Shown in pieces: positions 13,836-41,641 of a DNA stretch of 64,000 bases. The stretch spans positions 930,001 to 994,000 of the forward strand of contig CM030334.1 of assembly GCA_017654855.1 (NCBI GenBank). The letters run 5' to 3'. The translations under genes and the position numbers were made by a program. Numbering within the stretch: position 1 is the first letter of the stretch; every line of letters starts with the position of its first letter. The DNA comes from Podospora anserina (taxonomy: Eukaryota). Under the pieces are notes generated by a model, which was not told where the DNA came from, did not search any database, and worked only from the letters and a program-made list of their open reading frames with translations.

Positions 13836-15164
13836 TCAAGTCTGAGACGGTTCAGATTTAGCTTCAAGGTCTAGTCGCAAAATTGGAGGGAGAGAAACAC
13901 CGAAGCGGTTCCAGGTTCTGTGGTCATGCTCTCGTGAAGCCCGGCGCACTAGATCATAATGTTCATCCTCCAGTATCAAAACATCTGTTGACCTGCTCGG
14001 TCCGCTCCTGTGAAACAATGCCCCCGTTGGCACTGCAGTCCATGTATGGCTTGCAACGCGACGGTATGCTCTGGAAAGCTTCCCATTTATAACGAAACTC
14101 CCTCCCGGAACAGGCTGAACATAAAGAGCCAAGAGAACCCAGCGGTTGTCACTATTCAAGATATCGCACCCAATGATCGCCATCTGAACCTTTTCCTCAT
14201 CGTCTTCGGAATCGTGGATTTCGAGTACATTTTTCGGCACCCATGTGCGGTCCTCAACCAGGATTTCGACAATGTTCAAGCGTACTGACAACCCAACATT
14301 GGTCATATAGAAAGGAGCGAGGTTGCGAGGAGCCCATAACCCAAGAGTCGGTGGGCAGGCAAATGCAGCAGGTGAACTGGCTAGAAATCCACTACTTGAC
14401 ACATCTTCCTTCCACACGAAAAGACTTTGGTCAAAGGACACACGCATGATCTCTTTTTGTAGCCGACGGAATGCCTTCTTGCCCCCCTCGCCATAGAGAA
14501 TAGGCATGCAAATGTTGAAGATGCCCATGAGGCTGTAGGTTATGTCTTCGCTGCGTGTGGTATGTCGCTCTGATGCCCATCCCATTCGTTCCGATATGCT
14601 CACCTCGGAGACATTGTCACGAAATAGAAGACAGGCGTCGCCAATCTTAGTGATGTTCGAGATAACGCTGACGAGGTGCCTGTTTGTGATGGGTTGCCAT
14701 GTGGCGTCGAAGAATGATCTTGTCTCAGGGGCAAGGAGCTCTTGAAGGGTCCAACCGCGTGTGAACCACCGACATGGCCTTAAAGCATCATCAAGCTTGG
14801 CAATCGATAGGCTTCCCCAGTCAGCCATCGCTTTGGTATCGGAGAGGTAGACGAGGCAGTCTCCTGAGTCGTAGTAATAGCGGTACATGGAGTTGATGGC
14901 CTCGGATAGGTCGGCACTGTTGCGCTTGTCGATGCAGCAGGTGTCTACCCAACCATATTCGTAACCCTTTTGACTTGCGAGGCGGCAAAAGTTGGTGATC
15001 TTTGCGAAACCGGTCTTGTTGGTGATGGTTTCGCGCAAGCCCTGCATCTCCACAAAGGTCACTTCCTGACTTGGGACATCCCAGGTATGGGACAGGATGG
15101 CATAGGGTGGAAGGTCATTGCAGAACTCTTCTAGTTTCAAAGTGATTGTGTTGAGAAGCCACAT
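13836..15164 (-). CDS. HET-domain (heterokaryon incompatibility, PF06985-like) protein, 442 aa
   Basis: MWLLNT..L, PYAILSHTW, WVDTCCIDK, LSEAINSMYRYY, WFTRGWTLQELLAP, SERMGWAS.R.TTR.ED..YSLMGIF, LYGEG..AFRRLQ motifs. Confidence 0.93.
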   Translation of the reverse strand: MWLLNTITLKLEEFCNDLPPYAILSHTWDVPSQEVTFVEMQGLRETITNKTGFAKITNFCRLASQKGYEYGWVDTCCIDKRNSADLSEAINSMYRYYYDSGDCLVYLSDTKAMADWGSLSIAKLDDALRPCRWFTRGWTLQELLAPETRSFFDATWQPITNRHLVSVISNITKIGDACLLFRDNVSEVSISERMGWASERHTTRSEDITYSLMGIFNICMPILYGEGGKKAFRRLQKEIMRVSFDQSLFVWKEDVSSSGFLASSPAAFACPPTLGLWAPRNLAPFYMTNVGLSVRLNIVEILVEDRTWVPKNVLEIHDSEDDEEKVQMAIIGCDILNSDNRWVLLALYVQPVPGGSFVINGKLSRAYRRVASHTWTAVPTGALFHRSGPSRSTDVLILEDEHYDLVRRASREHDHRTWNRFGVSLPPILRLDLEAKSEPSQT

Positions 15165-15659
15165 AGTGATGGCAGATGATGATCATGTTGTAGGGTTTTG
15201 TTGATTGTTCAGGGAACATTTCTCGTGTTTACGTGCGGGGAACGGGACCCAAGCATGTGACCCAGCGGCCAATGACCTGCTACATGCATGAGGACATGCA
15301 GCCGAGCTGAAAGATTGTAACCTGCTATCAACATCAACATCATTTCTCTGTCTTGGTACAACTTATGATCGTTAGATGGCTCTAGTGTTGAGAGCCTGAA
15401 TTCTTACACGAGGTTCCCTGGTATTATGCCCGTCAGGGGAGAGGTCGTCGAACAGATACAAGTTGATTATGAATGACAATTGGCAAGGCATAACGAAGGA
15501 CGATGAACAGTAAATTGCATTGAGTAGGTAGTGTGCTTGAAGCGGCCAGGTGGGTGGTTATGTACCCGTGGACCTTATGTTGGGCGCCGCCGCCTGCTCC
15601 CAGCTGTCCTTGGCCTTCTCCCGCCAGAAGCACACGCTGAACAGGTCACCTGGGAGCTC

Positions 15660-25704: not shown

Positions 25705-26497
25705 TTTGTTGTGGTGGGAAGAAGAGGTGGAAAATGCGAGATGGGATGGAAGTTGGGTTTGTGCGGGGCTGGGGAGTGGTGACTGATGATAAGGTGGGAG
25801 TGATTGAGATGAGGGGAGAGTGAGGTGTTTTATACGCCGGATTGAAAATCTCCAAGACATACTGGTGGGTGTCACAGCATGGGAGTTGTCAACTCTCGTG
25901 ATCAGTACGACGTGAGCATCGATTGCCGCCTGCGTTCTCTAGCTCATGATGTGCCAATGCGGGACGGTTGACATCATTGGCGAATCGGCAGTCGATCCCT
26001 AACCCTAGACCCGCCCTAGCGTTTAGGGGGAAGCGCCGAGGAGGTTGGTAGAGGAGAAGTATCGTCAGGCTGAGCCCGAGGGTTTGGTACCACGCGCTGA
26101 GATGAATTAGTGGCGGAGGCTTTGGTGATGAGGTTCCGGGGAGAGATAGAGACATTGTCTTTGGCAAGTGCTCCCACAATGTTCATGGGGGTTAATTGTG
26201 AATATGCATTTATGAATTAGTAAGTGGTTTCCGACAAGACTTGGCGCCATCTCGCTGAATGCAACCTCAACCCTTGCAGGTCCACCGCCCCCGACCTCCA
26301 TTCAAGGATCGCGATCCATGATGGCGACCGTAACTCTCGACAGAAGCGTTCCTGCGTATCCTTTGCCCGACTTGACAGCGCATGCTTGGATCCGAAGGTC
26401 ATGATGCAATCTTCATAATTGACCTCAGGCAGGAGGTGCGGATGAGGTTTTGTTCGAGCTTGAGCTCTCAGACGCCGGTCCAGACACGCACTTCGAT

Positions 26498-28417
26498 ATG
26501 CGACTCATCAACGTGACAACCCTCCAAATCGACGAATACTTCGGCACCGGCATTCCAGAGTACGCAATTCTCTCCCACACATGGGACGCGACAGAGGCAA
26601 CGTTACAACAATGGAGCAAGCGGACGACGAGACTTCGAAAGTTCAAGGTTCCCGGCTACGCAAAAGTGTACGGAGCTTGCAAACTTGCGCGGCAAGACGG
26701 ACTTCGATATCTGTGGATCGACACCGTTTGTATCGACAAATCTAGCTCGGCTGAGTTGTCAGAAGCCATCAATTCCATGTTCGCATGGTACGAAAACGCC
26801 AAAGTATGCTATGTCTACCTGTCAGATGTCAAAGTACCGTCAAAGGACGACAACATTGACGTGTTGAGTCTGTTCCGGCGTTCTCGATGGTGGACTCGTG
26901 GCTGGACCCTTCAAGAGCTTTTGGCGCCAACAAACATTCTTTTTTACACTCGGGAGTGGGTGCAGATGGGAACCAAGTACGCGTTGGCTATGCTCATTCA
27001 AGAGATCACGGGTATTGGCGAAGGGTACTTGCGAGGGACACGGCGGATATCTTTGTGTAGTATCGCACAGAGGATGAGCTGGGCCTCCAAGCGAGTTACG
27101 ACAAGGGAGGAGGATCTCGCGTACTCCTTGCTCGGCATATTCGGAATCAACATGCCCCTGTTGTATGGCGAAGGGAGCCAGAACTCCTTCCGAAGACTTC
27201 AGGAGGAGATCATCAAGACATCGATCGACCAGAGCATATTCGCATTCGAGACTGGCTCATCGGATAACACCCTTCTCGCCCATCACCCAAGAGACTTTGC
27301 TGCGCAGGGTAGCGTACGACCTAGCTTCGCACGCAAGCTGACACCCCCTTTTACCCTTTCCAATGCTGGACTTTCCCTGACAGTACCGTTGATTCAAACC
27401 ATGTCTCCGTATTGGGTCTTGGCGGTCCTGAACTGTGTCGAGTTGCACTGGGACCAGGAGGACGTCAGCGCAAGGTCTGTCATTTGTCTTCCACTTCTTG
27501 GAAGGGACAAGAAATACATGCGAGCTCGAGCTCCGGTTACTCTGATTAGCCTCGGAGCTGACTTGGCGGGCGGGCCAAAGCCGACTATACGCCCAAAGCT
27601 CATCGACAACAGCGTTGAAGACGTTCGTGTTGGAAGAGAAGATGCCGATACAGACACCGTAACGACAGACAGCACGTCGAGCATCGAGAGGACTACACCA
27701 CTTGAAATACAGGATTTGACGACGCGGGAGGATACCGAGATACTCGTCTCGTACTTTTCTCGCATCTACACTCTTTGGGGTAATGAGATGGATGAGGCCA
27801 TGAAGGGTTTCGCCGTTAGCGAGATGATGCTGGATTCCACGACCGAAACGCCGGAACAAGGATTTATGCTCACCTTCCCCAGGGGGTTAGGGGAGTACCG
27901 CTATCGCTATTCGTATCCGCATACAGACCTGTATCCCAATATCAGCTTCTTTATCCCATCGGCAGTCGCTCCTCCGATGCACCACGACCATAACAGCAAC
28001 GGCAATAATAGGGAGGACGGCGCTGATCCAGATGGCCACCACCAGTCCCAACACCCCCGGCATGGAGAAGTTAAGAGAGGTCTACTGGTCTTTGCCCCCC
28101 TCCGCGGTGCGAATTACAAATATGTAGGCATTTACCTCGCAGTGGACTCGGCCACCAGGAACTGGACCTGCCGGATTCTAGACCTCGGCGCCAGCTTCTC
28201 TGGAATGAGATCGGACCTACAAGAAATGACGGGGCTCGGTGACGGTCTCATCCTGGGAAAGTCTGAAGAATGGCTCCACTACGATCAGCGGGGTGATGTT
28301 ATCGTGGCTGCTCGGACGAGATTCAAGACGGTCAAAGGCAAGCCCTGCAAGGAAGCGATCATGGTGGAGCTGGTGTTTGATGTAGAGGAGTTGTTGGAAG
28401 AGAGGGATTCGGAGTAG
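26498..28417 (+). CDS. HET-domain protein, ~639 aa, with long variable C-terminal region
   Basis: MRLINVTT, YAILSHTW, WIDTVCIDKSSSAELSEAINSMFAWY, WTRGWTLQELLAP, AQRMSWASKR.TTREED.AYSLLGIF..NMPLLYGEG. Confidence 0.93.
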   Translation: MRLINVTTLQIDEYFGTGIPEYAILSHTWDATEATLQQWSKRTTRLRKFKVPGYAKVYGACKLARQDGLRYLWIDTVCIDKSSSAELSEAINSMFAWYENAKVCYVYLSDVKVPSKDDNIDVLSLFRRSRWWTRGWTLQELLAPTNILFYTREWVQMGTKYALAMLIQEITGIGEGYLRGTRRISLCSIAQRMSWASKRVTTREEDLAYSLLGIFGINMPLLYGEGSQNSFRRLQEEIIKTSIDQSIFAFETGSSDNTLLAHHPRDFAAQGSVRPSFARKLTPPFTLSNAGLSLTVPLIQTMSPYWVLAVLNCVELHWDQEDVSARSVICLPLLGRDKKYMRARAPVTLISLGADLAGGPKPTIRPKLIDNSVEDVRVGREDADTDTVTTDSTSSIERTTPLEIQDLTTREDTEILVSYFSRIYTLWGNEMDEAMKGFAVSEMMLDSTTETPEQGFMLTFPRGLGEYRYRYSYPHTDLYPNISFFIPSAVAPPMHHDHNSNGNNREDGADPDGHHQSQHPRHGEVKRGLLVFAPLRGANYKYVGIYLAVDSATRNWTCRILDLGASFSGMRSDLQEMTGLGDGLILGKSEEWLHYDQRGDVIVAARTRFKTVKGKPCKEAIMVELVFDVEELLEERDSE

Positions 28418-33141: not shown

Positions 33142-33940
33142 GAGTTCAGATTCAAGTCTGACTGGGTATCAGAGGTGGGAGAATGAAGGATGATATCATG
33201 AATGGATGGACCGGGACACTAAAAAAGAATGGGGTCCTTTTTTTTGGGAGATACCCCTGAAGCAGGTGAATGACGACACGGGGAACGAATAAATACCAGG
33301 TTGGATATATCAAGGGACGGGCGCATATTCGAGTTGAAGTATGTCAAGAGTTCTGAGATTGAAACAAGTGCTAGCTGGGCTAGAGGGGAAAGTAATCGCA
33401 TCGTATGTTAGATTCAGTATTGACATCCAATGAGACGCTTACAGCTTGCTGTCACAAAGACCTTTTTCACCTGACGCTCCTGAACATAAGCTCACGATCC
33501 GTCGCCTGACGTTTGATGTCTGGGGAAGTGCACGCAAGCTAAACCTCGATTGTCAATCGATGGCGGCTACCCCTCACGCTACATCCCCAAGCGGCTCTGT
33601 AAGTACGTAACGACGATCCTCTCACCAGTGTAGGGATTCTCTTCCCCTCATGAACCCCACACCAAGCATGCCAAAAGAATATCCCGTCTCTCCGCATGCA
33701 CAACCATGTCGGGGAGCCGGGAGTAGAGGGGGTTCTATTCGGAGGGTAGTACTATGCCGGCAGATGCGGAGCAATCCTCCCCAACCTCGACCGTGTGCCA
33801 GGTGTCGCGGGGTAGGTTGTGGGCGGAAATATTAACCGTGTAGACCGAACTTTGGGAGATATATTTCAACTCTGGTATCTCGCCGTCGCCAACTTTCCTG
33901 CATCTTCTCACCATTCCCAAGTTGCTACTGGTTCATTACG

Positions 33941-35999
<2,059 letters not shown>

Positions 36000-36699
36000 C
36001 TGGTGCAAATGTACGACGGAGCTGGATCGACAGGATGGATAGTTCACGTGGATTATGTCAACACCTGACGTTATCATCTGTTGAGCCCAAACACGAGAGT
36101 AATCACGTGGTGGTTGGTGAAAGAACCAATATCTAGCTTAGTCCATGCTCAATACCGTGTTACCTTTGCTCCCGCATGCGGCTCTTACATGACCTTTGGT
36201 CTGGGGTAGTCACAAGGCAGTTTCGCCGGTGTCCTTTGCGCTGTCGCTCGAAACCAAGGGTTCAGGAAGAGCCAGATGCTAAATGTGGCATCATGGCACC
36301 GACATCGCTGTGTTTATGCTTTCAAGCGGCAACTTGCCTACCTGGTATACATGGAAACATTAATTTACACTGATACGCATCTCATAAGCAGGAGCCGGGC
36401 GATTTAAGTCACAAGGTCATCAGGTCTAACCGTGTCCTCTGCTGTTTCCCAGCAGGTCTCCTCGCACTCATATTTCGTAGTTCTAAAACCGAAACTTGGC
36501 AGGAGATAGTACCTCTGCGCCAAATGTGGACAAATTTCCTGCGGTGTTGAATGCATAGACACCAATGACACCATCTCACTGATCAGCACCTGGTCCGTCG
36601 CTGTTTATTGTACATTACGGTGGACATGGCGATAGAATAATCAAGAAGACCGACGATCTGTCTGGGCCCAATTCCTTTACTGCTGCCGTAATAAGAGAC

Positions 36700-38250
36700 A
36701 TGACACGTTCGGTCGCTCAAGACGGCTTTGTGATTATTTTAGAGCTACAGAATCGCCTCACGAAGCGAGAGGAAAAACTGTTTGTGACGCCGATATACAT
36801 CGGAATGACTGGTGGGAGGTCCATACGCTTAGCACCAATCATGCCCGACAACGAACGGCCAACGGACATCCCTCAAGCGAAAACATTCCTCCAGCTCCTC
36901 ATCAAGATCAAGGATGAGCTAACAGAGAGAAACACGAAGGAGATCAGCCTTTGGATCAAGACCTCCGGAGTGCCAAACATCGTGTCGGGCCTTGAACTTA
37001 CCTTTGCCCGGACCGGACAAATATGCAACGCTGTGGAGGATATTCGCAGAGGAGAAAAGCTGTTCACGCATCACGTCCGGATGGTCGACAAGGACGAGAT
37101 TATGGCCGCTTGGAATAGGGTCGTGTCCCTGGTTCAAGGGTATCGCTCTCTTCATCAACTTCAACCGGGATTCAACAAGCCGCACCAGACTGGCCATTTC
37201 TTAAAAGAGCTGGTCAAGGACACCGAAGACGTTTTTGGGCTTCTTGAGAGATACATTTTGACTGGCCCTGCATTGGAGGAAGGAGAGGCATTGGAGGCGA
37301 TGATTAGCGATGAGACCTTCCAAGCTCTCGGCCTAACAGGACCACTGCAACTGGTCAAGATCGATCGTCAAGATATCTCTCTGGGAGCAACCACCATGGC
37401 TTACAGTGGCACGGCCATCCAAGAGAAGATTTACGGCCCTTACCTGGATCCTAGGGATATTCCGGTCGTTTAAAAACGAATCAGCGTCCTAGCCAACATG
37501 TTGAAGGCCGTTGAGTCTCAAGACTTCCGTGCGCTAAGGTGCATTGGGTGGTTTCCCGAGCCCTTGGAGCATTGTTACATTCTCAACTTTGAAGTACCGC
37601 CTGGCATCGAGGACCAGAAATATGTGACATTGCAGCACGTCATCCACAAGATGAAAGGCCCCGACCGGCCATCCCTGGACGAGAGACTAGGTTTGGCTTT
37701 GGCGCTCGCCAAGGCAGTAGAAAATTGGCATCTCGTCGGTTGGCTTCATCAGGGGATCAGCAGCTTCAACATCATCTTCTTCCATAGGCCAGGAACACGC
37801 AGGATTGACCACGCAAAACCATACTTGCACTGCTTCGAGTTCGCATGACCTGGATCAGATACCTCAATAGGGCGAGCAGTGGACTCTATTGAATTCAATG
37901 CCTATCGACACCCTGATCGCCAAGGGACTGTAGAACGTGGTCATCTCGCCAAACATGACATTTATTCCCTTGGCGTGGTATTGCTCGAGATCGGTCTATG
38001 GCAGAGTGCTCTGGATGTTGTGCGGAAACTGCCTAGCAAATTCTCCGGGTTGGAAGCCCAATCCTATCTCGTGAAGCAATGCAACGAGAGACTCGCATAT
38101 TTCGTTGGAGAGTCGTACCAAGATGTTGTAGCAACTTGTTTGACGTCGAGCTACGAAGTTGAATTCGATGACACCACCCGCTCGTGATCAGCCAAGTCAT
38201 TTCACGAAAAGGTCGTCATGAAGCTGAGCATGGGCATTCAGCCCCTGTAA
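36700..38250 (+). pseudogene. Helical N-terminal (possibly HeLo-like) + degenerate protein-kinase-like domain gene, 517 codons with three in-frame stops
   Basis: ORFs 36700, 37498 and 37879 share one frame, separated by TAA 37471, TGA 37846 and TGA 38185. Motifs FRALRCIGW, PSLDER..LA..LA, H.VGWLHQGISSFNIIFF, PYLHCFEFA[R]P, YRHPDRQG and DIYSLGVVLLEIGLW are typical of the fungal HeLo-associated kinase-like family. Confidence 0.85.
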
Positions 38251-38251
38251 T

Positions 38252-38958
38252 TCAGGAGATCGAGCAACAGCATTCGTCACCCCCCTTCGTCGTTGTTGTC
38301 AACGCTACAAGGACCGCGGCATAGCTATCGAGAAGCCGTTAGCAAGATTGTCCATCTAGGCGCAGCAAAGCACTTACCTGGCTCCCGAGGCAAATCTGTC
38401 AACAGTCCTGGTTGTTGTGAAGAACGAAGCAACCACAAGGAACATGATTGCGGAAAATATGCTCGCCAGCACACGGCCTGCGGTTGATATTATCGATGGG
38501 ATGAAGGTGGTTGGGATGAGGATCACCAATGTCACGGCGACCACTGCGAGGATGCGGCTAAAACGCCGGAGGTGTGGTCCGAGGAGAAGAACATTGCTGT
38601 CGGCTGTGATCTTGTAACGCTGTGTTTTTAGACGAGGGAAGAACTGGGATCGGACGTCAGCTCTGACATTCACCCTTGCCCTATCAGCTGCAGATAATAC
38701 TCATACCCTCCCTGCCAGCCGATCCAACCAGTACGTGCATTCTTCCACGAAGACCTCACTGTACGCCAAAGCCCTGTCCACAGGACCGGCAAGGCTGCCT
38801 ATGTCCTCATCCATCTCAAGATAATCGGTCTCCTTCCGGCTGATACTGGTCTTGATGCCCAGCCCACAGACCACTCCAAAAGCCTTACGCCTGTTAGCAC
38901 CTTTTAACACTGCCTCTGGACCAGAATCCTTCAGGCCCACGGCCAGACCCGAAGAATT
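38252..38958 (-). CDS. DUF6594-like membrane protein (5' end missing or unresolved); exons ~38958-38707, 38643-38378, 38324-38252
   Basis: Two canonical introns (38706-38644, 38377-38325) join ...ETDYLEMDEDIGSLA... to a three-helix hydrophobic C-terminus ending RTVDRFASGASYAAVLVAL, resembling the DUF6594 signature (E.FAATAAYAAVLVVF). Confidence 0.7.
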
Positions 38959-39133
38959 CTAGATCGACCGATCAGACTTTGCACCGCCGCAACCGAGTCA
39001 GCTACTTGCTTCTACCTAGCTTATTACACAACTTCGGAGATAGCACGGCAGCGAAAATGCTGTACGCAGACGACGAGCAGCATTACCGTCCCCGAATAGA
39101 TTTCTATGTCGAGGTAGGAAACCCGTTGCAGCG

Positions 39134-39397
39134 ATGCTTCCACAACATTCTCCAGATTCCTTTGTACAACAACTCATTATCTCAACAACGGCGCTGACAT
39201 CTTGAAATCAGGGCAAATTTCGCGTCAACGAACAGGTATACGTAACCTCTGACGACGGCCGCAGTCTGCTCGGTTCATACACGGTGGCCCGGGTGGTCGA
39301 AGGCAGCAATCCAAAGAAATACGAGCTCGAACATGACGATAGAACAAGCGTGGAGGGAGGAAGAGAGTATAATGAGGATCAATTGGAATTTGCTTGA
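39134..39397 (+). CDS. Small (~65-70 aa) beta-rich, SH3/Tudor-like protein absent from the ORF track; main exon 39212-39397
   Basis: Branch GCTGAC (~39193) and CAG acceptor (39211), then 61 open codons GKFRVNEQVYVTSDDGRSLLGSYTVARVVEGSNPKKYELEHDDRTSVEGGREYNEDQLEFA*. First exon uncertain (ATG 39134 with a weak donor, or ATG 39106 out of phase). Confidence 0.6.
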
Positions 39398-39554
39398 ATG
39401 CCAAAAAAAAAAAGATACAAAAGGAAGATGCGGTTGTGAAACACGGCCGGCGCGTCTTGAACGGCACCGAGAGAGCCTCACAGGACAATTGCTGATATTA
39501 TGTATGGTATACCGTAATGACCCGACAAATCCCCAACCTGCATGCTTTCATCCC

Positions 39555-40865
39555 TCACCCCCCAGCCCTCCCCCTCCAAGTAAAATGCCCCCTCGGATCC
39601 CTCCCCAACTCCCTCATAGCCTTCACATCCCCATTTCCCTCCCCAAACTCCCTCACCACCGCCTCCTCCGCCAACTTGGCATACCTGACGGCATTCTTCG
39701 CATCCCCCAACATATTATAATTCAACGCCACCAACGTCAACCCTCCCGCAATCTTACTCTCCAACCTCTCCTCCTGATACAACCTCACCAACCTCTCCAA
39801 CAACTTCCTATCCACCTTATCTGTAAACCCGCTCAGTTTCCCCTCAATCTTTTTGATCTCCTCCAAATTCCTATCCGACTTTTTAATCTCCTTCGCGCTC
39901 CCCGCACAAACAGCACAAGAGCAGTCAAACCCCCAAGCATGAAACGCCCTCATCTTCCGGTTTTCCGTCATGTCCATTTGATCGAGATAAGAAATTGTCA
40001 GTTCTTCATCCGGCTTCACCTCTCGGACAACGGTGGTGACGTGCTGCAGGGTCTTCGGGTTGATTTGAAAAACGACATTGGGGCGGCAGTCGTGGTTGAA
40101 CCTGCTGACCTCAGGCCAGTTGCCGTAGTGGTGGCCGCCCTCGGGGGCTTTGGTGCTGAGGTCCATTTGGAACGAGTTGGTCTGGATGATGGAGTGGATC
40201 TGATCTCCCGAAAAGTGCGCCATTTGTTCTTGGAAGCGTTTCCGAAGGGGTTCGGGGAGGAGGTCAACGGCTGCGGAGAGCAACGGGGCTTGGGCCGAAG
40301 CAGGGATTTGGTCGAAGAAGGTCCGGTGGACAATGAGGGCAGGGTAGAGGGACATGACGGTGGTTCCTGGGGAAAGCTTCTCGTTTGCCACCAAGCCTAA
40401 TCCCTTCCCTGGAATGGCCGCCTCGCGGTATGGTAGGGGAGTGGGATCGTATTCATCCACATGTGGAATAAGATCAGGGGGCGACTTTTTGTGAAGAGCC
40501 TGGAGGCGTTGGATATTGCGGGCAGTGGTGATGGCTACCATGCCACGTCCGTGAGCGAACCTTGGGTTGTGGAAGACGCAATACTGGTCGACGCAGTGGT
40601 TGGTCGACTCAAATTCAGGCGACGCTGGTCGAAAGGCAAAGGGTGGCGGATGCGGTGGTTCCAAGGTCACATCTGAGCTGGAATACCTGGCCTCACCGCC
40701 TGTCAAAGCGGGACAGATGTACTCGCGTAGATGGATGACCGTCTTCGGGTCAATGATGTCTGGGGAAGGTTTGCCGATGCACACGTCTGCAAAGGACAAT
40801 CGTGGGATGAGTTGCTGGACAGCTGCTGCGCCTGATGCGAGTGATAGTAGGTGAATGGCCCACAT
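39555..40865 (-). CDS. SET-domain protein with predicted N-terminal signal peptide and helical C-terminus, 436 aa
   Basis: IPGKGLGLVA, SRFNHDCRPN, EELTISYLD, WGFDCSCAVC post-SET motif. The N-terminus MWAIHLLSLASGAAA is hydrophobic with an AxA site. Confidence 0.9.
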   Translation of the reverse strand: MWAIHLLSLASGAAAVQQLIPRLSFADVCIGKPSPDIIDPKTVIHLREYICPALTGGEARYSSSDVTLEPPHPPPFAFRPASPEFESTNHCVDQYCVFHNPRFAHGRGMVAITTARNIQRLQALHKKSPPDLIPHVDEYDPTPLPYREAAIPGKGLGLVANEKLSPGTTVMSLYPALIVHRTFFDQIPASAQAPLLSAAVDLLPEPLRKRFQEQMAHFSGDQIHSIIQTNSFQMDLSTKAPEGGHHYGNWPEVSRFNHDCRPNVVFQINPKTLQHVTTVVREVKPDEELTISYLDQMDMTENRKMRAFHAWGFDCSCAVCAGSAKEIKKSDRNLEEIKKIEGKLSGFTDKVDRKLLERLVRLYQEERLESKIAGGLTLVALNYNMLGDAKNAVRYAKLAEEAVVREFGEGNGDVKAMRELGRDPRGHFTWRGRAGG

Positions 40866-41641
40866 TGTGGCTGAATCTTGGTGAAGATGATGATGAACAA
40901 GGTAAGGGCAATCTCAGCTTTTGTCCATGGTGTCGTTCGAAGCCAGTGTCTGTTTCATGTTTCATGTTGGCTGAAACGGTTGGCATTCAGGGGTTGAGAT
41001 GCCAAGACGCCTCTCTATCCCAATCTTACCCACTGAAGGCGCTGTGGGGCGCTTGGTTTTGGGGGCCAAAGCGTGCAGAATAGGGGTCCAGCAGTGATGT
41101 CATGCTGAGCTTGAGCAAAAGAGTGGTTGAAGACATGCCGATGGTTTATGGGAGTGGTTTAGGTCCTCCGCTCGTGACAGTCCGGAATGCTGCGCCCTTT
41201 CAATGTCGAAGAAACCAGGAACTCAGGAATGCCGCCACCACCAGCCCCTGATATTCCCGAAATAGAATGAGATGTATCGCTCGCGTGTTTGTGGCTTGAT
41301 AGATGTAGACGGACAATCTTCCCCGGCCCAATGCACCGGGAGGTGGCTCGGGAGATCCCCTTCGTCCCGCATCCATCCCTGAGAAGCGGTTCGAGATTGA
41401 CCCAGAGCACCTGAGTCCCCGTCCCGGCATTCCACACCAACCGGTTATTGTACACGCGATATCACAGCTGGGAATGTCCGGAATTTAGAGCTCAGCCGTA
41501 CTCATTCGATCGTCGACGACTAAATTGCTCTTAAGGACAGGATGCTATCCGCCCAAGGTTGCTTAGCTTCGCCCCTTCGTTGCTGTCAGTTCTGCCCAGC
41601 GCAATAACCATATCGTGAGTCATCCGATCTACACTCTCATC

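Follow-up and report, generated by a model that had tools for sequence, protein, structure and literature searches.

The window analysed here, a 64,000-nucleotide stretch of Podospora anserina DNA (contig CM030334.1 of assembly GCA_017654855.1, positions 930,001 to 994,000), carries a locus in which three genes are packed in 2.7 kb, as seen from the sequence and the listing of its open frames across the span 36000-40200: a relative of caspase-like protease/pseudokinase proteins (gene 1), a gene for a membrane protein of the DUF6594 family (gene 2), and a gene for a Tudor-like microprotein (gene 3). The trio is a conserved cluster, and we consider with moderate confidence that the locus is a decayed copy of a three-gene module conserved in filamentous ascomycetes. 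To judge from the reading frames, the module is dead in the species of the window, where genes 1 and 2 are broken and the microprotein gene alone is intact; from the linkage and by analogy, we infer that the three products work together. A first-pass annotation, made from the DNA letters, had placed three genes at 36700-39397, had described the first two as decayed, and had proposed that all three are inherited together. The three genes are confirmed by the sequence, Pfam and tblastn, both larger genes are indeed broken, and the gene-neighbourhood check, in which the trio recurs across at least four classes of Pezizomycotina, bears out the co-inheritance.

Linkage was assessed in metagenome contigs that were fetched with an alignment of gene 1 relatives alone, neighbours playing no part in the selection; of 243 stretches with a match to the search patterns, 162 proved to be relatives and 80 loci were retained, among which 34 were of the Peptidase_C14 (C14) type and fell into 26 groups at ≥90% nucleotide identity. 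First-round partner detection was seeded with Sordariales sequences only: a hidden Markov model (HMM) built from three Sordariales DUF6594 orthologues found that gene in 18 loci, and for the microprotein, tblastn with only P0125 of Cercophora samala as query gave 19 loci at E ≤ 0.003, iterated HMMs bringing this to 25 loci. The microprotein gene lies past the end of gene 1, on the opposite strand and at a distance of 33-389 bp, in 19/19 groups that hold the gene 1 3' end with room for it, and the DUF6594 gene lies beyond it, on the strand of gene 1 and divergent from the microprotein gene, in 15 of the 16 groups with a further ≥1.2 kb. As a control, 46 other DUF7580 loci (38 groups) were searched, and neither partner was found, even at E ≤ 10, in any of the 22 groups with ≥1.5 kb downstream (Fisher's exact test, 15/16 vs 0/22, p = 1e-9, the groups not being phylogenetically independent). 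Moreover, pairwise distance in any one of the three genes tracks that in the others (r = 0.76-0.84, a level reached in 0/2000 permutations).

The remaining 7/26 groups comprise five that end at or inside gene 1, together with L043 and L048. L043 (1961-8512) holds a 408-residue C14 frame without the middle or kinase-like part, followed by 3.8 kb without recognisable genes and then by an intact-looking microprotein/DUF6594 pair, while L048 (353-1412), a short contig, shows a third arrangement, in which the microprotein gene precedes the C14 gene and shares its strand. As well, in L026 (1128-3544) the last ~170 residues of the kinase-like domain stand before the microprotein gene, with an ankyrin-repeat gene upstream on the other strand, and this locus may be another truncated copy of gene 1.

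In named genomes, accession order gives a similar picture. The microprotein, DUF6594 protein and gene 1 product of C. samala are KAK0670321, KAK0670322 and KAK0670323, and in Triangularia verruculosa the DUF6594 protein (KAK4205084) stands next to gene 1 (KAK4205083), no microprotein being found. One gene lies between the microprotein and gene 1 in Xylariales sp. No.14919 (GAW19537 and GAW19539), Xylaria grammica (KAI0415717 and KAI0415715) and Apiospora hydei (PG997_015279 and PG997_015281), and none in Aspergillus brunneoviolaceus (RAH47765 and RAH47764), Aspergillus fijiensis (RAK77209 and RAK77210) and Aspergillus aculeatinus (RAH67301 and RAH67302), in which the two are consecutive. Among the metagenome loci, L001 has 95% identity with an Alternaria protein, and Hyaloscypha has a microprotein nearly identical to that of L007, which, together with the named genomes, places the trio in Sordariomycetes, Eurotiomycetes, Dothideomycetes and Leotiomycetes.

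Two gene orders were found. In the metagenome loci, where strands were read, gene 1 is followed by the microprotein gene on the opposite strand and then by the DUF6594 gene on the strand of gene 1, an order that the consecutive accessions in the three Aspergillus species fit; in the window, gene 1 is followed by the DUF6594 gene on the opposite strand and then by the microprotein gene on the strand of gene 1, and the accession order in C. samala, as well as in the Xylariales with one unassigned gene in the middle, fits this order. The microprotein/DUF6594 pair is always divergent (head-to-head), and whichever of the two abuts gene 1 is tail-to-tail with it across a very small spacer. Since the two orders differ, the divergent pair has been inverted as a unit in the lineage of the window, and it still abuts the 3' end of gene 1 there. 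The tail-to-tail arrangement of genes 1 and 2 in the window had been recognised in the first-pass annotation, and the packing proves tighter than it stated, because the stop of gene 1 (38248-38250, + strand) and that of gene 2 (38252-38254, - strand) have 1 base between them.

Close relatives such as C. samala and T. verruculosa would share gene order through descent alone, and the trio could then be a case of simple synteny conservation or of common regulation, its members being uncoupled in function and just not separated so far. This explanation is already disfavoured, and we regard it as very improbable: the genes remain adjacent in four classes and where protein identity is down to 25-40%, the microprotein/DUF6594 pair has kept its place even when inverted, and the 22 control groups lack the arrangement.

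The intact orthologues of gene 1 encode proteins of about 715 residues, with an N-terminal Peptidase_C14 domain (PF00656), a helical middle, and a C-terminal DUF7580 domain (PF24476). The closest homologues are P0002 of C. samala (716 residues, 80% identity) and P0003 of T. verruculosa (710 residues, 56%), and about 60 further full-length relatives of 580-770 residues occur in Xylariales, Hypocreales, Diaporthales, Helotiales, Pleosporales and Aspergillus. The main frame in the window runs from 36583 to 38250 on the + strand, and its read-through (P0001) matches DUF7580 at E 6.1e-8 (33.1 bits, cut-off 27), the same profile giving 28 bits with P0002. Peptidase_C14 scores 23.9 bits in P0002, 25.3 in P0003 and 26.6 in P0011 (cut-off 21.4). 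The caspase His motif HYGGHG is invariant in 28/28 aligned family members and conservation of the Cys motif LDCC reaches ≥90%, while the catalytic loop of the kinase-like part, according to the 28-member alignment and an alignment to LIMK1, has the consensus HQGISSHN where kinases have HRDxxxxN; the HRD Asp of active kinases is therefore absent from the family, the DFG-like Asp is kept, and matches to solved kinases are at E 0.01 or higher. Because HYGGHG is invariant, LDCC is conserved, and the loop reads HQG instead of HRD, the intact product is predicted to be an active cysteine protease fused to a pseudokinase.

The first-pass annotation had suggested a HeLo-like N-terminus for gene 1, which was not upheld. 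No HeLo (PF14479) match was found at the N-terminus of P0001, P0002, P0003, P0006, P0008, P0011 or P0014, and the orthologues carry Peptidase_C14 there; HeLo is carried only by paralogous DUF7580 proteins, such as P0069 and P0110, whose loci lack both partners. The C-terminal ~360 columns of the gene 1 family are nonetheless homologous to those HeLo-DUF7580 proteins (hhalign probability 100%, E 7.6e-72), indicating that the C14 domain occupies the place of the membrane-targeting death domain of the paralogues.

The window copy of gene 1 retains much less. By tblastn, P0002 residues 184-716 align to 36658-38247 at 80% identity, residues 69-105 to 36520-36636 with two stops inside, and residues 110-120 to 36636-36668 in a different frame, whereas residues ~121-183, which include the Cys motif, and 1-68 have no match in the window save for a doubtful remnant at 36027-36113. 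The C14 family HMM covers positions 68-83 of 175 only (16 positions, 17 bits), so that the C14 profile together with the His-Cys dyad is found in the intact orthologues and not in the window copy. The three stops reported in the first-pass annotation are present, at 37471, 37846 and 38185, and the damage is greater than it described, with two more stops, a frameshift, and the loss of the two stretches just named. With five in-frame stops, a frameshift and a lost catalytic core, gene 1 of the window is a pseudogene. Repeat-induced point mutation was considered as the source of the stops and is unsupported: the local GC (guanine plus cytosine) content is ordinary, one stop is a G-to-T change when set against the Glu codon class of the orthologue, and both TGA stops fall at orthologue Arg.

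Gene 2 matches DUF6594 (PF20237) at E 1.7e-7 (31.8 bits, cut-off 30) over profile positions 114-231 of 238, while its C. samala orthologue P0122 matches the full-length profile with 175.9 bits. Three homologues of 290-293 residues were found, namely P0122, P0123 of T. verruculosa and P0124 of Apiosordaria backusii, and tblastn shows that the window gene corresponds to orthologue residues 132-290 of 290, including the three predicted transmembrane helices. As the first-pass annotation had noticed, the expected N-terminus is missing: P0122 residues 1-131 have no match anywhere in the window by tblastn or HMM, and of the family HMMs, dufC matches with 87.8 bits and dufN does not. The first recognisable DUF6594 codon (38847) is 209 bp from the microprotein ATG, in agreement with the head-to-head spacing of about 200 bp given earlier, and in intact loci the distance from the microprotein barrel to the DUF6594 gene is 618-2130 bp. 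The decayed structure is common to at least one other sequenced strain (DNA run X17, with four base changes).

RNA-like contigs of the same organism, from two runs, extend from 38816 to 37870 with both DUF6594 introns removed (GT-AG on the - strand), which indicates that the DUF6594 remnant is transcribed and spliced. No such contig covers microprotein exon 2 or gene 1 upstream of 37870, where the data simply have a gap. The spliced transcript passes its own stop by ~380 nt and runs antisense over the 3' end of gene 1 (37870-38251); the gap between the convergent gene ends is likewise short in intact loci, at 33-124 bp (389 bp in L020), so that overlap at the 3' ends may be usual in this cluster. 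An in-frame ATG, the first in the truncated gene, stands at 38812-38814 (- strand), 2 nt inside the end of an RNA contig, and translation from it could still, in principle, yield a product of 149 residues made up largely of the three transmembrane helices. The C-terminus CCCSIS (38255-38272, - strand), which resembles a CaaX lipidation box, is shared by the window and C. samala; T. verruculosa, A. backusii and L001 do not keep it. P0122 is all-helical in its AlphaFold2 model (mean predicted local distance difference test score, pLDDT, 73), in which residues 31-110 form a coiled-coil hairpin, modelled with confidence, and three hydrophobic helices lie at 200-280, and a profile search of PDB sequences with DUF6594 gave nothing credible.

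The microprotein gene, with its two exons at 39057-39113 and 39212-39397, encodes 80 residues, the same length as the annotated P0125, to which its second exon (the barrel) is 90% identical. Of the 26 proteins that a full HMMER search returned at E ≤ 1e-3, some 20 are fungal and 54-108 residues long; no Pfam family matched consistently (0/42 members). The first-pass proposal of a Tudor- or SH3-like protein appears to hold at the level of the fold: the AlphaFold2 model (mean pLDDT 75) is a five-strand barrel, which Foldseek superposes on the Tudor domains of 53BP1, PHF1 and LBR with template-modelling (TM) scores of 0.5-0.56 and probabilities of 0.97-1.0, at a non-significant E of 0.065 or higher, and also on SH3_Tf2-1 and chromo-like Atlas models. 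A profile search of the PDB gave a single weak match, YdhK (E 0.005). An N-terminal motif, RPx[IV]xxY, lies 77-94 nt ahead of the barrel and is followed by an intron in 14/21 locus groups and in the window. Weak matches to the microprotein, repeated 3-7 times, occur in five large unrelated proteins (P0126, P0131, P0133, P0143 and P0150, being CAP-Gly, S8 subtilase, NlpC/P60, Jumonji and one unnamed); these are probably generic small-barrel repeats and not partner fusions.

The survival of the microprotein gene beside two broken genes would also suit a selfish poison-antidote or killer element, one whose poison would be DUF6594 or the protease and whose antidote would be the microprotein; in that case the copy in the window would be a disarmed element in which the antidote gene has been kept. 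The divergent promoter region that the microprotein and DUF6594 genes always share is consistent with such a pair, as is the presence of two copies of the gene 1 family in some genomes, such as those of Xylaria curta and Plenodomus lindquistii. However, the distances of the three genes co-vary, as expected of long vertical co-inheritance, no mobile-element genes flank the trio in the loci examined except for an RNase H fragment in L003, and a microprotein gene that outlives its partners has been seen in one case only. We therefore give this explanation little weight.

Several known systems resemble the trio in part. According to a previous study of fungal gasdermin/protease clusters (het-Q1/het-Q2 and CHAT-type het-Q2-like; Clave et al. 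2022, PMC8851545), as far as the available portion of that article goes, these clusters combine an S8 or caspase-related CHAT protease with a membrane-acting partner, occur in two- and three-gene forms, and are patchy among fungi; the available portion of another reports that their proteases are sometimes fused to kinase-like domains (PMC12881547). The trio is alike in being a small cluster of adjacent genes (15/16 groups and the named genomes) with a multidomain protease, a membrane partner and a patchy distribution. Unlike those clusters, its protease is a Peptidase_C14 and not CHAT or S8, its partner is an all-helical DUF6594 protein with three transmembrane helices and with no gasdermin among its fold matches, and it has a constant third gene, the Tudor-like microprotein, cleavage of DUF6594 being only putative.

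Similarly, the fungal HeLo/HELL-pseudokinase proteins (MLKL-like; the paralogues P0110 and P0069) share the homologous C-terminal ~360 residues and the absence of the catalytic-loop Asp, whereas gene 1 of the trio has a C14 protease and helical middle instead of the N-terminal HeLo, and the HeLo paralogue loci are without microprotein and DUF6594 neighbours. Metacaspases and other Peptidase_C14 proteins share the HYGGHG and LDCC motifs with gene 1, PF00656 matching barely over its cut-off; gene 1 differs in carrying a fused pseudokinase-like domain, the likeness, at 20-27 bits, is very weak, and the window keeps a His stub only. The barrels of Tudor, chromo and integrase-type SH3-like domains superpose on the predicted five-strand barrel of the microprotein (TM about 0.55), which differs from them in lacking sequence-level membership, in standing alone as a protein of 55-108 residues, and in having its own N-terminal motif. 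Bacterial caspase-type conflict systems show a weak C14 likeness, the match to the NCBIfam family 'caspase, EACC1-associated type' being at E 2.8e-6 and 27 bits against a cut-off of 140, a lead only. A PADLOC search gave a weak, sub-threshold likeness to anti-phage kinases.

By analogy with these systems, the trio is most likely a protease-sensor and membrane-executioner module with a small regulator. The DUF7580 pseudokinase domain would sense or regulate, and the C14 protease would then act either on the DUF6594 membrane protein or on a microprotein that restrains DUF6594, the microprotein being a co-expressed regulator, inhibitor or adaptor; the outcome would be a response directed at the membrane, of which regulated cell death or a defence reaction is the most likely form. 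Put in full, we tentatively propose an undescribed cell-death or immune module of Pezizomycotina, in which a caspase-like protease on an MLKL-type pseudokinase has replaced HeLo and controls a DUF6594 executioner, with the Tudor-like microprotein as inhibitor, bait or adaptor, and of which the window shows the end state. A three-chain complex prediction (gene 1, DUF6594 residues 1-200 and the microprotein as partner), run without controls and with alignments unused, scored 0.01 against a mark of 0.34 and is evidence neither way.

The following points weigh against the proposed module. Its function is drawn from linkage and from analogy to gasdermin/protease clusters and HeLo-pseudokinase proteins, the analogy itself resting on the available portions of PMC8851545, PMC10197012 and PMC12881547. 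Adjacency in the named genomes was deduced from accession order on equal-length contigs and not read from DNA; the full trio was assessable in 16 groups only, mostly on metagenome contigs; the loci scored with the microprotein and DUF6594 HMMs were also those on which these HMMs had been refined; and the group counts overstate the number of independent events, because related species share history. One lineage, L003/L023, has gene 1 and the microprotein gene with no detectable DUF6594 within 10 kb, only the RNase H fragment being seen downstream. The Pfam C14 matches are barely over the cut-off (20-27 bits), and DUF6594 has no likeness to a known pore former: Foldseek of its fold against the PDB gave nothing below E 2.7, the Atlas returned DUF6594 itself only, and hhalign against HeLo gave a probability of 0.2%. 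Moreover, the loss of the module in the species of the window shows that it is dispensable there.

The same evidence bears on a role outside death and defence, such as signalling in membrane or organelle stress or quality control, in which the trio would be functional and the protease would process the membrane protein in normal physiology. Linkage is neutral on the kind of function, DUF6594 is without likeness to known executioners, and metacaspases also have non-death roles. A housekeeping role, however, does not predict the patchy distribution or the outright loss in the species of the window; in addition, the paralogous DUF7580 proteins bear the HeLo death domain, and there are matches, albeit weak, to conflict-system caspase and kinase families. 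We consider such a physiological role rather unlikely.

In agreement with the first-pass remark that no characterised module of this kind was known, no description of the trio was found in print, and no paper in the library that was searched names DUF6594 or DUF7580; supplements lay outside the search, and Dataset S1 of PMC8851545 (protease-neighbour architectures), an article available in part, could include related architectures. The linkage, down to 25-40% identity, gives DUF6594, DUF7580 and the unnamed microprotein family a testable context, that of a caspase-like protease/pseudokinase with a membrane protein. If the proposed death or defence pathway is true, it would add a third type of fungal executioner beside HeLo/HELL and gasdermin, a new case of a protease replacing the pore-forming domain on an MLKL-like scaffold, and a first function for DUF6594, a large fungal family without a known role. 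The decayed copy in a well-sampled species is a natural null background for gene add-back.

Features of the three-gene locus in the window, with positions, strand and the evidence for each
Feature	Position	Strand	Evidence
Possible extra gene 1 remnant	36027-36113	+	tblastn, doubtful
Gene 1 pseudogene (C14 caspase-like / helical middle / DUF7580 pseudokinase-like), recognisable part	36520-38250	+	tblastn with P0002, Pfam DUF7580, family HMMs
In-frame stop TAG in C14 remnant	36556-36558	+	sequence, tblastn
In-frame stop TGA in C14 remnant	36580-36582	+	sequence, tblastn
C14 stub with caspase His motif HYGGHG, sole C14 remainder	36592-36639	+	C14 HMM, motif alignment
Frameshifted remnant and deletion junction; orthologue residues ~121-183 with LDCC missing	36636-36668	+	tblastn alignments in two frames
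Helical middle region	36712-37377	+	family MID HMM, 203.5 bits
In-frame stop TAA; orthologue Glu	37471-37473	+	sequence vs orthologue
DUF7580 pseudokinase-like domain, in pieces	37474-38241	+	PK HMM, 166.7 + 152.2 bits; Pfam DUF7580
In-frame stop TGA; orthologue Arg	37846-37848	+	sequence vs orthologue
In-frame stop TGA; orthologue Arg	38185-38187	+	sequence vs orthologue
Natural stop TAA of gene 1	38248-38250	+	sequence
5'-truncated DUF6594 gene; exons 38707-38847 (truncated), 38378-38643, 38252-38324	38252-38847	-	tblastn with P0122/P0123/P0124, Pfam, HMM
DUF6594 intron, 53 nt	38325-38377	-	joint 38324>38378 in RNA runs X18 and X19; absent from DNA run X17
DUF6594 intron, 63 nt	38644-38706	-	joint 38643>38707 in RNA run X18
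Residual spacer, 209 bp; ~131 codons of DUF6594 absent, with most of the divergent promoter region that the two genes share	38848-39056	.	tblastn, HMM
Microprotein exon 1, N-terminal tail with RPx[IV]xxY motif	39057-39113	+	tblastn with P0125 residues 1-18
Microprotein intron GT...AG, 98 nt	39114-39211	+	sequence; spliced model of 80 residues
Microprotein exon 2, Tudor/SH3-like beta-barrel; stop 39395-39397	39212-39397	+	90% identical to P0125; microprotein HMM, 78.2 bits; fold

The immediate neighbours of the locus are an FAD-linked oxidase gene (33836-35999, + strand) and a SET-domain gene (39558-40913, - strand), both with long open frames, which indicates that the decay is confined to the trio. 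Finally, we also identified two HET-domain genes (PF06985) in the window, at 13839-15182 on the - strand (E 9.3e-12) and at 26423-28414 on the + strand (E 3.9e-16), so that the region of the trio holds other incompatibility-type genes.

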